Of a DNA stretch of 64,000 nt, positions 16,017-57,035 are shown one piece after another; the first letter of the stretch is position 1; every line of letters begins with the position of its first letter. A program made the position numbers and the translations under genes. The stretch is from Mustelus asterias (taxonomy: Eukaryota), in assembly GCF_964213995.1 (NCBI RefSeq), contig NW_027590274.1, forward strand, positions 434,001-498,000. Reading direction: 5' to 3'. Below the pieces are notes generated by a model. The model saw nothing but the letters and a program-made list of their open reading frames with translations, ran no database searches and was not told the DNA's origin.

Positions 16017-16217
16017 TGACGTCACAATGGAATGGGTGAGAGTGTGACGTCACAATGGAATGGGTGAGAGTGTGACGTCACAAAGGAATGGGTGTGGGTG
16101 TGACGTCACAATGGAATGGGTGTGGGTGTGACGTCACAAAGGAATGGGTGTGGGTGTGACGTCACAATGGAATGGGTGAGAGTGTGATGTCACAATGGAA
16201 TGGGTGAGAGTGTGACG
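16017..16217. repeat. 28-bp minisatellite x7 carrying CRE palindromes
   Basis: Unit TGACGTCACAATGGAATGGGTGAGAGTG starting at 16017, 16045, 16073, 16101, 16129, 16157 and 16185. Confidence 0.95.
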
Positions 16218-49868: not shown

Positions 49869-50849
49869 ATGGAGAAACCGTGGAAATGTGTGGATTGTGG
49901 GAAGGGATTCGGTTTCCCATCACAACTGGAAGTTCATCGGCGCAGTCACACTGGGGAGAGACCGTTCACCTGCTCCGTCTGTGGGAAGGGATTCACCCAT
50001 TCATACAACCTTCTGACTCACCAACGGGTTCACACTGGGGAGAGGCCGTTCACCTGCCCTGTGTGTGGGAAGGGATTCACTCGCTCATCCCACATTGTGA
50101 CACACCAACTTGTTCACACTGATGAGAGAATGTTTACATGTTCTGACTGTGAGAAGAGTTTTAAATGCAAAAAGGATCTGCTGACACACCAACGAATTCA
50201 CACTGGGGAGAGACCGTTCACCTGCTCTGTGTGTGGGAAAGGATTCATTCAGTCATCCCACTTGCAGACACATCAACTTGTTCACTCTGATAACAAACTT
50301 TTTAATTGTTCCCACTGTGCGAAGAGCTTTAAAAATAAAAAGGATCTGCTAACGCACCAATATGCTCACACTGGGGAGAGGCCATTCACCTGCTGTGTGT
50401 GTGGGAAGGGATTCAGCCGTCCATCTGCCCTATTGAACCACCAGAGAATTCACACTGGGGAGAGGCCCTTCACCTGCTCAGACTGTGGGAAGGGATTCAC
50501 TCGTTCATCCAACTTATTGAATCACCAGCGAGTTCACACTGGGGAGAGGCCGTTCACCTGCTCTGTGTGTGGGAAGGGATTCAGTCAGTCATCCAACCTG
50601 CTGACACACCAGAAAGTTCACAGTGCGGAGAGGCCACTTACCTGCTCTGTCTGTGGGAAGGGATTTTCTCATTTATCTTATCTTCTGAAACACCAGCGAG
50701 TTCACACTGGGGAGAGGCCGTTCACCTGTAATGTCTGTGGAAAGGGATTTATTCAGTCATCCCACCTGCTAACACACCAGCGAGTTCACAAACGACTGCA
50801 AGGTTTGGATTCTACTCTTAATGATGCTGTTAATCATATCCAGGACTGA
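49869..50849 (+). CDS. C2H2 zinc-finger protein ZNF-8, 11 fingers plus C-terminal tail
   Basis: 326 aa, intact; tail [18 protein letters not shown]; acceptor ends at 49510. Confidence 0.93.
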
Positions 50850-51924
50850 ATCGTGTTCACTCTGACAGTCTTCATCCGTTGAGGTTTAATATTCTGAATA
50901 AATATGAAATAGACCAGCTTTGTTTTTTAAAATTGTTGTAGATTTTTGTCTTTCCCACCTGACTGTTTAACATCACCAGGCTGGAGCTCAGAAAAGACAA
51001 TCGGGGGTGGATCATATGGCAAACAGGACGCAGTCCTTCAGGGTCACAGAGGGACAAACAGCACTTTGCTCTTCCTCGTCTCTCTTCACGACAGCAAAGT
51101 ACCCGTGTGGTTTAATCCTGAGATGTGCAAGAATCTCAGTCACTCCCTTCTATGTTTCAGCGCTCCTAGACCAGGAACAGAAGTTCCTTTACAACTGTGT
51201 TTAGAGTCAGGAAGAACAACAGTGAATGCTGGAAGCATGCTGCTAAATCAGAGATTGGTGCAAAACTGGGATCTGTTCCTGACTGAGAGTGAAATGGCAG
51301 GATTAGATTTCCAGACTGAAAATGCAGAAAAGTCTAAAATATTTTAATGTGTTTGTGTGTCAGTGCCAGTTTATTGAACAGAAACCAGCTCAAAATAAAT
51401 TGGTTAAAGTCTGCATTAAAGTAGCAGCTGGAGAGTTCAAAGGAACCTGTTATCTGCTGGGACAATTAGACAACAATTTGATTCCCACTGAGACCCACAG
51501 TGAATGAGGCTCCCGCGGGCCTCATACAAAAAGTGACGCAGACGTTTCAGGGTCAGAGAAAAAGAGTCGGATCTCAACGAAAATGCGCAGGAAATGAAGG
51601 CCACAATACAGCCCCAGCTGAATAATATTCCCCCACTGAGCTCAGCCATTGTCAGTGTTGTGAAATGTCACATTTGCCATCCTATTATTCCCGGATCAAA
51701 TCCAACCATTCTCCGATCCCATCCGCACAAAATCTGCAGATTACCCCGGGTGAATAACTTCCTTAATCTGTACTTAGAAAAATTCTGGATTCGGTGCCTA
51801 TCTGCCCGGCGACACATTTTAAAAGTGATCTATTATCAAATGCAGCCTCAGAATTGTTCCATTTTCAAGTCCGTGGAGCAGAAATAATAACTGATTGAAA
51901 TCAGAGCTTTTCTATTTGGGGAAT

Positions 51925-52378
51925 AGAGGGGTACAGTGAAGATTTACTATGCTGATTCCTGGGATGGCAGCTCTGTCATATGAGGAGAGATTAAATCCGT
52001 TAGGATTATATTCACTGCGGTTTCGAATAGTGAGAGGGGGTCTCATAGAAACTTATAAAATTCTAACAGGGTTCGACAGGGTAGATCCAGAAGACTGTTC
52101 CCAATGGTGGAATCCAGAACCATGGGTCATCTTTTGAAGATAAGGGAAAAACTGAGGTGAAGGGAAATTCCTTCATCCAGAGAGTGTTGAATGTATGGAA
52201 TTCAATACCACCGAATGTAGTTGAGGCCAAAACGTTGTCTGATTTCAAGAAGAAATTTGATATAGCTCTTGGGGCTAAAGGGGTCGAGGGGGAAGGAGGA
52301 TCAGGATATTGAATTCCATGATCAGCTATGATTACGATGAATGGCGGAGAAGGCTCCTGCTTCTAGTTTCTATGTTAT
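51925..52378 (+). mobile_element. CR1 3' end
   Basis: IPGMAALSYEERL..LGLYSL..GLIETYKIL followed by 3' UTR. Confidence 0.85.
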
Positions 52379-52504
52379 GAGTCCGTGAAATATTTCCTGG
52401 TGCAGAGTTGAGTGACTACTTATCCCCGGTATACTTACAGCACTAACTATTAATTATGTTGAGTCCTGGATGCTACTCATTAATCCCTGTACGTTAGGCT
52501 GCTG

Positions 52505-52806
52505 AATCATTGAATCCCGACAATGCAGGATGGAGCCTGTCCCGACAACAATCCCACCCAGGCCCTATCCCCGTAACCCACATATTTACCCTGCTATCCC
52601 CTGACACTTAGGGTAATTTTGCGTGGCCAATCCAGCAAACCTGCACAGTTTAGGAATGTGGAGGGAAACTGGAGCACCTGAGGAAACCCACGCAGACACG
52701 GTGAGAAAGTGCAAACTCCACAGAGACAGTGACCCGAGGCTGGAATCGAACCCGTGTCCCTGGGGCTGTGAGGCAACAATGCGAACCACTGCGCCACCGT
52801 GTCACC
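52505..52806 (-). mobile_element. V-SINE
   Basis: Head, core and tail motifs present. Confidence 0.85.
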
Positions 52807-53033
52807 CATAAATGATTAAATTAGAAAAAAGGATCTGCCTTAAGAAAGATTGATGGACTGAGTTCTGAGGAAAGCGAGTTAACCAGTTAATGAGACAGAA
52901 TAAGTGATGATGTGGGAGAGAGCAGAGAGAGAGCAAAGACTTTAGAAATAAGTTTACGGCCAGGGAAGGAATGTGATTGGAAAGTGCCAGCTATATTAAA
53001 TCATTAACTAACAGTGATTGGTTCACTGGTTAC

Positions 53034-53356
53034 GGGGCGGCATGATGCCACAATGGTCAGCGCTGCTGTCTCACAGTGTCAGGGACCCGGGTTCAATTCC
53101 GGCTTCGGATCACTTTCTGTCTGAGTTTGCATGTTCTCCCAGTGTCTACGTGGGTCCCCTTCGGGTTCTCCTGTTTCCTCCCACAGTCCAAAGATGTGCA
53201 GGTTAGGTTGATTGGCCATGCTAAATTGACCCGAGCGTCAGGGGATACGCAGGGTAAATACATGGAGTTGCGGGAGTGGAGCCTGGGTGGTATTGTGACC
53301 GGTATAGACTCGATGGGGCGAATGGCCTCCTTCTGCACTGCAGGGATTTTATGATT
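53034..53356 (+). mobile_element. V-SINE
   Basis: Head, core and tail motifs present. Confidence 0.85.
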
Positions 53357-53359
53357 CGC

Positions 53360-53523
53360 AGCTGACGTCAGCTCAGGGAGATGAGCCAATCGCAGCACTG
53401 AGAAACGCCTCCCTGTTTCTGAATACTTGAAGCTGCCTCTGATCTGAGTTCACTCTGTGATATAAGACTAGAGGCAGCAACTTATTGTAAACATTGTCGC
53501 TGCTTACTGTCCAATCAGGAACC
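53360..53523 (+). promoter_or_regulatory. TCR V-segment promoter
   Basis: 14-bp palindrome AGCTGACGTCAGCT (CRE at 53363-53370), CCAAT at 53386, TATA-like GATATAAG near 53459. Confidence 0.7.
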
Positions 53524-53569
53524 ATGTATCTCCTGTGTGCTTTACTGATAACAATGACCACGCTGCCCG
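53524..53569 (+). CDS. TCR V leader exon
   Basis: ACCATG, MYLLCALLITMTTLP, phase-1 donor GTGAGT at 53570; 85-nt intron. Confidence 0.9.
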
Positions 53570-53654
53570 GTGAGTCTGAGCTCAGATCCTCAGTGTGTGT
53601 TTCATGGGTTATATTTGTTCACAGATTTCTCACACATTCTACATTTTGTTGCAG

Positions 53655-53961
53655 GAATCAATGGCCAAGATTCAGTTTCCCAGGACCCGGCTGAATTAAC
53701 GGTTCAGGAAGGATTGAACGTAATAGTGAATTGTAATTACACAACAACGGATGCTTTTCCAAATCTCTTCTGGTACATCCAGTATCCCGGGGAAGCTCCG
53801 AGATATTTACTGCAGAAATATAGCACGGGGGGCGGAGAAAAGTCTCCAGATTTCCCTGACCGGTTTTCTGCTGATTTGGACAAGGACAAGAAAACAGTTC
53901 CTTTAAATATCACTGGGGTCCATGTCTCTGACTCTGCCGTATATCACTGTGCGCTGAGCCC
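53655..53961 (+). CDS. T-cell receptor alpha/delta-type V exon (germline segment)
   Basis: TTGCAG acceptor; DSVSQ...VNCNY...LFWYIQYPGEAP...RFSA...VPLNI...DSAVYHCALSP; both Cys and Trp of the V fold; in frame with the leader. Confidence 0.92.
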
Positions 53962-54000
53962 CACACTGCTACAGAGGCGCAGTGAGCCCGTACAAAAACC
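53962..54000 (+). other. 23-RSS recombination signal
   Basis: CACACTG 53962-53968, 23-nt spacer, consensus nonamer ACAAAAACC 53992-54000. Confidence 0.95.
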
Positions 54001-54197
54001 TGCAAAGGCACTCTCACCTCCTCTCACTGAATCAGATCTGTGACCTGGATTGTGAACTGTTAATACAAACAGAACAATTGTATAACGAAGAGTTAGTCCG
54101 AATGTTCTCATTCCATGGTGCTGAATGTGCCATTCTTGTTTAAACACTCTGCAATGCTGAGACTGGGAGAAGTGAACAACAGGGGGCAGCATTGCAG

Positions 54198-55292
54198 CTT
54201 CCATTTTACTATTATTCCTTCCAAAGTGGATAAGCTCACACTTACCAACGCTATACTCCATCTGCCAGATCCTCGCCCACTCACTTAGCCTATCCAAATC
54301 TCTCTGCAGACTTACCGCATCCTCCACGCAATTCACTTTCCCACTCATCTTTGTGTCATCCGCAAACTTTGTTACCCAACACTCGGTCCCCTCCTCCAGA
54401 TCGTCTATGCATATGGTAAATACTTGAGGCCCCAGCACCAATCCCTGTGGCACGCCACTAGTCACCAACTGCCAACCAGAAAAGCACCCATTTATTCCAA
54501 CTCTCTGCTTCCTGTTAGATAGCCAATCCCCAATCCACGCTAACACTTTACCCCTAACTCCGTGCACCCTGATTTTCTGCAGCAACCTTTTGTGAGGCAC
54601 CTTATCGAACGCCTTCTGGAAATCCAAAAACACCACATCCACTGGTTCCCCTCTGTCAACCGCACTCGTTACATCAACATAAAAATCCAGTAAATTTGTC
54701 AAACACGACTTTCCCTTCATGAATCCATGCTGCGTCTGCTTGATCAAACCATTTTTTTCCAGGTGTCCTGCTATTTCTTCCTTAATGATGAATTCCAGCA
54801 ATTTCCCAACTACGGACGTTAAGCTAACCGGCCTGTAGTTACCCGCCTTTTGTCTACCTCCTTTTTTAAACAGTGGCGTCACATTAGCTGTTTTCCAATC
54901 AGCCGGCACTTCCCCAGAGTCCAGCGTATTTTGATAAATTACAACCAACGCATCCTCTATTACTTCTGCCATTTCTTTCAGTCCCCTGGGATGCATTCCA
55001 TCCGGGCCCGGGGACTTGTCTACCTTTAGTCCCATTAGCCTCCCAAGCACTACCTCTTTAGTAATAGTAATCATTTTAAGGACCTCATCCCCTACAGTCC
55101 CATGACCGTCAATTTTCGGTAAGCTATTTGTGTCCTCTACCGTGAAGACTGATACAAAAAACTTGTTTAAGGCCTCAGCCATTTCCTCGTTTCCCATTAT
55201 TAAATCCCCCTTCTCATCTACTAAGGGTCCAACATTTACTTTAGCTACTCTTTTCCTTTTTATATATTTGTAAAAACTTTTACTATCTCTCT
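54198..55292 (-). mobile_element. Young CR1 RT fragment, open for about 365 codons, truncated at both ends
   Basis: KSPGPDG, NYRPVSLTS, QHGF, DFQKAFDKV, GVPQG, FADD. Confidence 0.95.
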
Positions 55293-55294
55293 GT

Positions 55295-55490
55295 CCCTCC
55301 CCCCCCCCCCCTGGGCTTTGCCCCCCCCCCTGGGCTTTGCCCCCCCCCCCCCCGGGCTTTGCCCCCCCCCCCGGGCTTTGCCCCCCCCCGGGCTTTGCCC
55401 CCCCCCCCCGGGCTTTGCCCCCCCCGGGCTTTGCCCCCCCCGGGCATTGCCCCCCCCCGAGCATTGCCCCCCCCCGAGCATTGCCCCCCC
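55295..55490. repeat. GGGCTTTG/GAGCATTG-(C)n tandem repeat with G-quadruplex potential on the minus strand
   Basis: About 10 units separated by long C runs, adjoining a SINE remnant. Confidence 0.9.
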
Positions 55491-55559
55491 AACCCACACA
55501 TCCTGGGACACTAAGTGGCAATTGAGCATGGCCAATCAACCTAACCTGTACATCTTATA

Positions 55560-55718
55560 AACAGTAAGAAGTCTCACAATACCAGGTTAAAGTCCAACAG
55601 GTTTATTTGATCGCACGAGCTTTCGGAGCACTGCTCCTTCATCAGGTGAATGGCCACTCACCTGATGAACCTGGTGTTGTGTGCCCACCCCAGTCCAACG
55701 CCGACATCTCCACGTCAT
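55560..55718. mobile_element. Penelope pLTR with inversion
   Basis: Same family as the 22426, 28779 and 30720 copies. Confidence 0.75.
55614..55648 (-). ncRNA. Minimal hammerhead ribozyme
   Basis: Reverse strand CAC-CTGATGA-A-GGAGC agt GCTCC-GAAA-GC-TC-GTG. Confidence 0.7.
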
Positions 55719-56454
55719 CTTATGGACTGCAGATTGATTCTCTGGAGAATCCTGTTCTTTCTCTCTATCAACATTCCTCTGCAAGTTTTATTTCCTTCAA
55801 GTACCCATCCAATTTCATTTTGAAATGATTGAATCTTCTGTTCCACCATCCTCATAGGCAGCGAGTTCTAGATCATGTGCTCTCCCTACCTAAATATAAA
55901 TCTTCCTCAAATCCCTGCTCTACCACTACTCAAGTAATGTCCTGTATGTTACACTTTTATCCAGTATTATAGACATCTGTCTGGCAGCCTGCATGGAGAT
56001 TTTCAGCTCCCTGTGTCCAGGACAGGAAGCCGTGAGCATGGATCTGTCAATCAGCCTCAATCAGCACCTTCAGGAGAATTGGGAGGGTGAATATTAGATA
56101 CAGCAGAGTGAGAATTGAGGGAGAGTGTGTGGGATGGAGATTTACTGCGTTTGGGGAATGAGAGAGGAAAGAATGTTCCATAGAAACTAGAATTGTCTGT
56201 TCTGAATTTCTGTCCTGTACTGACACTGATGAATTTTGTAATCTCCTTTTGCAGGATATCAGAAGGTGGGGATTTACAGACAGAAATCTCGAATCAAACG
56301 TCACATCAACATCTGACAGACATTTGATTGATTGGGACCCGAATATCATTGGCCTTTCAATCTTGAAGGAGAAATCTTTTAATGTTCTGTCTGCGTCAGA
56401 ATTTTTTATAACATAAATGTGACTGGAAATACACCAAGACACAGACACACCTGA

Positions 56455-56562
<108 letters not shown>

Positions 56563-56576
56563 TGAGATTTAATTGA

Positions 56577-57035
<459 letters not shown>

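Follow-up and report, generated by a model that had tools for sequence, protein, structure and literature searches.

A TCR alpha/delta V segment within a ZNF gene cluster

Analysis of the window, i.e. the whole 64,000-nucleotide stretch of Mustelus asterias DNA considered here, reveals a TCR alpha/delta V segment lying between two C2H2 zinc-finger (ZNF) genes, ZNF-8 and ZNF-9 (Table 1). The sequence-only reading had described a CRE promoter, a leader, an 85-nt phase-1 intron, an open V exon and a near-consensus 23-RSS, and all of these parts were located in the sequence. The CRE motif of the putative promoter is TGACGTCA. The V exon possesses both cysteines and the tryptophan, the leader, intron and exon have the form expected of a functional TRAV/TRDV segment, and the 3' 23-RSS has an intact CAC and nonamer, with a heptamer identical to that of array members in the same V family. 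An RSS of such quality occurs once in the window, whereas 100 mononucleotide-shuffled versions averaged 0.0. The exon matches the Pfam V-set family (E 1.4e-17), its best matches in the PDB are mostly TCR alpha chains and scFv, and the segment is closest to TCR alpha/delta V segments of J-alpha-linked arrays, whose promoter motifs, splice sites and RSS it shares. By itself, the V segment is ordinary.

Table 1. The V segment, the cassette that carries it and the flanking ZNF genes; positions are those of the window
Feature	Position	Strand	Remarks
ZNF-8 coding frame	49869..50846	+	11 C2H2 fingers; left neighbour, within the amplified block
Left junction	51486..51487		2-nt microhomology (CA) between ZNF 3' flank and V-array DNA; border of donor V cryptic heptamer TACTGTG
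Upstream-V stub and orphan 23-RSS	51488..51534	+	8-nt stub; CACAGTG at 51496, nonamer ACAAAAAGT
Inter-V spacer from array	51535..53359	+	SINE-like repeats
V promoter-like region (putative, motif-based)	53360..53523	+	CRE 53363, CCAAT 53386 and 53511, TATAA 53461
Leader exon	53524..53569	+	ATG 53524, 46 nt, phase 1
Intron	53570..53654	+	85 nt, GT-AG
TCR alpha/delta V exon	53655..53961	+	Open
23-RSS	53962..54000	+	CACACTG-23-ACAAAAACC, 1 heptamer mismatch
LINE reverse-transcriptase fragment	54137..55290	-	Up to 55002 common to 3 of 8 array loci
Right junction	55290..55484		C-rich repeat tract, then SINE upstream of ZNF-9 paralogue at 55484; no RSS, no target-site duplication
ZNF-9 coding frame	56613..57032	+	5 fingers, open frame

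A tblastn search of the window with six shark V, J and C proteins returned this V as the sole match, in line with the earlier statement that the 64 kb hold no further segment; that statement overlooked, however, an orphan 23-RSS with the 8-nt stub of another V. The V had also been placed between two intact ZNF genes. Both reading frames are indeed open, but ZNF-9 is intact as an ORF only: it has 5 fingers vs 7 in L093, the sole paralogue translated, and it is devoid of the CpG-rich promoter-like element found upstream of that 7-finger paralogue. At 55484-57032 of the window, the nearest promoter-like element upstream of ZNF-9 is now the putative V promoter, and it is conceivable that this promoter or the V leader drives ZNF-9. 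Far to the left, at 16017-16164, six further CRE motifs (TGACGTCA) follow one another with an exact 28-bp period, probably as a tandem repeat.

J-alpha/C-alpha units and the ZNF genes between V and J

The C genes were located with a perfect 12-RSS pattern, which gave 21 matches (control 6), 19 of them clustered on contig C8, one on scaffold C71 and one on contig C546; a genome search with Pfam DUF1968 recovered no TCR-alpha C. The 19 identical signals on C8 (50.18-51.08 Mb) are found in both orientations about 50 kb apart and probably mark an Ig minicluster array. A genome search with C-alpha exons revealed exactly two TRAC genes, one on C71 and one on C546.

C71 (20.4 Mb) carries an identical copy of the window V at 15.16 Mb (+ strand) and, 3.2 Mb away on the same strand (18.371-18.414 Mb), 34 J-alpha motifs followed by open C-alpha Ig, connecting and transmembrane exons; 32 of the 34 motifs pass a relaxed RSS/donor/frame test that was run without control. 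ZNF arrays lie directly 5' of the J unit, in 150 kb without a gap. Among 20 evenly spaced 10-kb samples of the V-J interval, 7 contain zinc-finger arrays (9 arrays, 6 of them with at least 8 fingers), which extrapolates to about 144 arrays between V and J (Poisson 95% about 66-273).

C546 (249 kb, examined whole) presents the same order in a compact form: 10 V-like matches on both strands (32-63 kb), four intact ZNF ORFs with 16, 11, 10 and 10 fingers (68-94 kb) that come after the V cluster and ahead of the J array, then a decayed D/J relic at 121 kb and a 200-N gap, and finally the 139 segments of the J array (137-237 kb) with the second open C-alpha. The V segments, the ZNF genes and the first D/J relic are in ungapped sequence, and the gap separates the ZNF genes from the J array; C71 is ungapped over homologous flanks. 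A 23-RSS-like match at C546:93388 was discarded as a chance match within ZNF coding sequence. Thus, the suggestion of a TCR alpha/delta locus interleaved with ZNF genes is supported as genome structure on both C546 and C71.

The two TRAC are 72% identical (Ig exon dS 0.25, dN 0.16) and share 58% and 52% identity with a Scyliorhinus sequence; since they are closer to each other than to the latter, they suggest an old lineage-specific duplication, both products of which were kept open. ZNF genes lie ahead of both J-alpha/C-alpha units (C71 18.366-18.432 Mb; C546 120-242 kb), as does the decayed relic of a D/J or J segment. On C71 the intron before the C-alpha transmembrane exon contains about 12 kb of short-period satellite (18.42-18.432 Mb), and the same intron on C546 is shorter than 2 kb.

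A pattern comprising the V end plus the heptamer has 163 matches in the genome (control 0); among those listed, 10 are on C71 between 4.5 and 17.1 Mb, 6 on the + strand and 4 on the - strand. The ZNF start motif has at least 2,165 genome matches, and the first 100 listed comprise 39 on C71 (3.8-6.4 Mb) and 61 on earlier contigs. A chromosome without J or C was named as evidence against the earlier reading; the C71 copy, with the J-alpha array and an open C-alpha downstream, speaks against that outcome, but on the window's own contig C242 (540 kb) neither J nor C was matched. Only one of the 13 copies found is on a J-array scaffold. At least in its C71 copy, which is in cis with J-C-alpha, the window V does not look like a lone orphon.

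Delta-type C units

With the C-alpha transmembrane exon as a query, we found 19 further related exons, and the matching Ig exon, of a delta type, is present in 19 copies without stops (82-100% identical). These are located on C71 at 7.14, 11.04 and 12.27 Mb and on 16 other contigs, each with a transmembrane exon nearby. In all four units examined the Ig and transmembrane exons are open; three have 2-3 J motifs upstream (the region fetched for the fourth was shorter). On C436 a NAR-type V is followed by a second V with a 23-RSS and then by J segments upstream of the delta-type C, and the order V-V-(J)-C is found in four NCBI models. Identity to TRAC is 31-38%. The 19 units are likely of the TCR delta type and resemble TCR-delta miniclusters; they were named from context, not by comparison with named TRDC. 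No delta-type C was matched beside the C71 J-alpha array or on C546, where the 200-N gap could hide sequence. A canonical TRA/TRD translocon (a single V-D-Jd-Cd-Ja-Ca with one TRAC) was rejected as a description, given the two TRAC and the 19 delta-type C elsewhere.

Amplification and age of the V-containing block

The V protein is encoded with 100% identity on 13 contigs, and 20 matches of 91-95% occur on other contigs (genome search, 150 of 1,922 candidates scored). The remaining 12 identical copies all have the same ZNF-V-ZNF context at 98-99.99% identity, the copy on C1203 being cut by the contig end. The amplified block measures at least 18.5 kb, and its left edges differ in all three copies followed. 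Outside the ZNF-9 region, the cassettes of the 12 copies differ from the window by 0.01-0.5%, and the V exon shows one synonymous codon difference from the window in 11 of the 12. Divergence from the array relatives amounts to 3.7% in the V exon (5-7 amino-acid changes, 3-6 synonymous codons) and 3.5% in the neighbouring spacer. The V exon shows no extra constraint relative to the spacer, and selection keeping the V intact is not supported. Because the copies are near-identical and the exon is as diverged as the spacer, intactness reflects youth and is no proof of use; the alternative of a "preserved" orphon that had been offered for this V finds no support in such young copies.

The same figures fit a V that is an inert hitch-hiker, intact only through its recency: segmental duplications of ZNF genes would have taken a young orphon with them, and T cells would use V segments of arrays and those near J alone. 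Stops are present in many of the other V segments on ZNF contigs, 12 of the 13 copies found are on contigs without TRAC, and on C71 the V copy is as far as 3.2 Mb from J. Against this, the promoter motifs, splice sites and RSS match those of array members, one copy shares scaffold and strand with an intact J-C-alpha unit, and on C546 even the nearest V segments have ZNF genes before J. We consider the hitch-hiker account unlikely, though one to be taken seriously.

Origin of the cassette

Judged by its flanks, the window V belongs to 4 kb of TCR alpha/delta V-array DNA fused between two ZNF paralogues. On the left the cassette begins within the upstream donor V, 8-10 nt ahead of its RSS, and retains the whole of that 23-RSS. 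The V-less ZNF paralogues examined (17 of 17) diverge from the window after 51487, and homology of the array loci to the window begins at 51486-51488 in seven of eight cases and at 51783 in the eighth. In the eight array relatives (10 kb each) zinc fingers are absent and V segments are mostly adjacent. Downstream of the V the cassette includes the LINE fragment, which we take to be CR1-like. The flanks derive from two different ZNF paralogues; this, together with the absence of a target duplication and the loss of the CpG-rich element of ZNF-9, argues for a rearrangement rather than a clean insertion. The spacer of the orphan 23-RSS (window 51503-51525) is largely palindromic in the ZNF-embedded copies, and two substitutions relative to the array copies extend the palindrome.

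Two other origins were rejected. RAG transposition of a signal-end fragment does not agree with the structure, as there is no outward-facing RSS pair and no 5-bp target-site duplication, the left end still carries 8-10 nt of coding sequence flanking the RSS, and the right end consists of LINE, poly-C and SINE sequence. A retrotransposed copy is ruled out by the intron, the promoter and 2 kb of upstream spacer, all of which are present. The observed junctions suggest instead that the V-array piece was joined between the ZNF paralogues in the germline by a microhomology-mediated process, after which the cassette, having neither transposon ends nor target-site duplications, would have spread by segmental duplication.

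RAG activity in shark germ cells has reportedly been observed, and RAG itself could have made the cassette in the germline through a cut of the VH-replacement type at the upstream V's cryptic heptamer, with the coding end then joined to ZNF DNA. In the donor arrays the left-junction point coincides within 0-2 nt with the 3' border of TACTGTG, and the accessible part of PMC3526766 gives this motif as the VH-replacement cryptic RSS, for which a nonamer is not required. The chance of such a junction, in a rough and post hoc estimate, is 0.4% per end or about 2% over five ends. Conversely, an RSS-like site is found at only one of the five informative junction ends, and not at the right end of the cassette, the C88 junction (which falls in spacer DNA) or either end of the C24 fragment described below. 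Furthermore, the ZNF side of the left junction is devoid of a heptamer, no 5-bp target duplication accompanies it, and its 2-nt microhomology is in keeping with ordinary end joining. We therefore regard a germline RAG cut as quite improbable and retain microhomology-mediated joining as the favoured route. The base-level survey covered the junctions of 3 of the 20 other V loci, and in one of these, on C71, the place where ZNF and V DNA meet is a 200-N gap.

A 370-bp fragment of the window V family, 94% identical, was found on the large chromosome C24 (L129, about 38,776,770-38,777,140). It comprises part of the leader, the intron and most of the exon, is surrounded by LINE sequence, does not end at an RSS on either side, and resembles a templated insertion.

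Reliability of the assembly

False duplication and mis-scaffolding could in principle produce the copies as well as their interleaving with ZNF genes. Small unplaced contigs hold most of the copies, the one on C165 shows 99.99% identity over 10 kb, the above-mentioned C71 join coincides with a gap, and at the left junction, where there is a unitig break at 51487, none of the read contigs listed bridges the two sides with 31 nt on both. This explanation is nonetheless highly improbable, as the window contains no N, the identical junction recurs on 12 other contigs, the block edges differ between copies, several percent of divergence separates the three delta units within C71, the two TRAC are separated by the dS given above, and on C546 the segment from the V cluster to the first relic is ungapped.

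The C71 scaffold, with one gap in the 610 kb fetched, runs through segmental duplications, and its long-range order is to be taken as provisional. Four read runs (from one study and at most three samples, possibly the assembly source) cover the V intron unspliced and thus look like DNA; their depth is not a measure of copy number. The copy numbers of V blocks and C units given here may include false duplications.

A proposed multiplied alpha/delta complex and its predicted consequences for T cells

Taken together, these data favour, with a probability of about 0.6, the interpretation that the window V comes from a 4-kb array piece that was joined into a ZNF cluster and amplified to at least 13 copies, and that it can likely be used as a V within a far-flung TCR alpha/delta complex that has multiplied, where joining to a downstream J would delete the ZNF genes in between. 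Under the 12/23 rule, a V segment with a 23-RSS joins by deletion if located on the J strand and by inversion if located on the opposite strand. RAG would have to reach J from ZNF-embedded V positions; joining of a same-strand V would then delete the intervening ZNF genes, and that of an opposite-strand V would invert them. On C546, where ZNF genes separate the V segments from J, ZNF deletion would follow for whichever same-strand V is used.

We infer from this arrangement a somatic loss of ZNF genes in T cells. It is likely to be a tolerated by-product and not a programme, as the ZNF family is highly redundant, with more than 2,000 members, many of them near-identical. A functional effect of the loss is doubtful for the same reason, namely the size of the family indicated by the start motifs.

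A bolder version of the multiplied-complex reading would have two working J-C-alpha and about 19 J-C-delta units spread across a ZNF-packed chromosome, with V cassettes seeded among the ZNF genes, some by germline RAG cuts at cryptic signals, and with T-cell clones deleting or inverting V-dependent sets of tens to hundreds of ZNF genes, so that they would differ heritably in transcription-factor content. We put this forward tentatively and think it doubtful as a whole.

Two long-diverged open TRAC and 19 open delta-type C would blur the line between translocon and cluster organisation, and multiplied TRAC and delta units would raise questions about allelic exclusion, locus exclusion and the reach of RAG.

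Comparison with known receptor loci

Scattered V segments have been described in elasmobranchs: in white shark, TCR alpha/delta V exons are dispersed over chr27 (8.2-17.1 Mb) in both orientations and mixed with NAR-TCR cassettes (accessible sections of PMC12227049). Table S1 of that work has one TCR-alpha C entry in each of four species and at most one delta C. The complex in M. asterias shares the scattered V segments and differs in its two TRAC, 19 delta-type C and the ZNF genes between V and J. The terms "zinc" and "ZNF" have no matches in the accessible text and supplements of PMC12227049; ZNF genes are possibly just unlisted there, as Table S1 covers receptor genes only. Our literature search found no published ZNF-interleaved or multiplied shark TRA/TRD locus; most of the subscription literature on the TCR loci of nurse shark lay outside it, and prior reports are possible.

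In the accessible parts of two reviews (PMC6795676, PMC2275272), TCR loci are called translocons in all lineages, including the conventional loci of sharks, and cluster organisation is reserved for shark antibodies and marsupial TCR-mu; in M. asterias, by contrast, multiplication, about 19-fold, extends to the delta-type J-C unit itself. The marsupial TRM clusters and shark Ig miniclusters treated there are the nearest parallels, as they likewise involve duplication of whole V-(D)-J-C units and two-V-domain chains. Salmon has one TRAC and one TRDC according to the accessible part of PMC8559430; no copy-number information was obtained from PMC5931798. The V-J distance of 3.2 Mb on C71 is about twice the length of the mouse TRA/D locus, 1.65 Mb as given in the available text of PMC2275272.

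The accessible text of PMC2275272 also describes the opossum orphon TRMV-OR2, which, like the window V, is a displaced V with an RSS near LINE DNA; unlike it, the window V has kept its promoter and leader, has been amplified and has one copy on a J-C scaffold. The resemblance to VH replacement concerns TACTGTG, located likewise at the 3' end of V in the part of PMC3526766 available; a germline cut is here only suggested, from one junction.

Unrelated multigene families are known inside TCR loci: TRB contains trypsinogen genes, and TRAV1 is surrounded by olfactory receptors (PMC2275272, available sections). Those passengers are small conserved insertions in single-copy translocons, whereas the shark shows recent, repeated segmental shuffling of V blocks with ZNF genes. 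The sequence-only reading took the arrangement as a candidate for an undescribed system, a claim too broad for its principle: in the human IGL locus ZNF280A, ZNF280B, PRAME and GGTLC2 are interspersed with the V segments, and use of a distal V deletes them (PMC9282919). Bystander genes in receptor loci and scattered shark V segments are thus already published, and what appears to be new is the multiplication of a TCR alpha/delta complex and its interleaving with ZNF genes. Human IGL involves four genes in a B-cell locus, with deletion documented (PMC9282919); in the shark the locus is one of T cells, the number of ZNF arrays is estimated at tens to hundreds, and deletion is inferred. ZNF genes between V and J would make the choice of V a predictor of somatic gene loss, on a scale far above that of human IGL.
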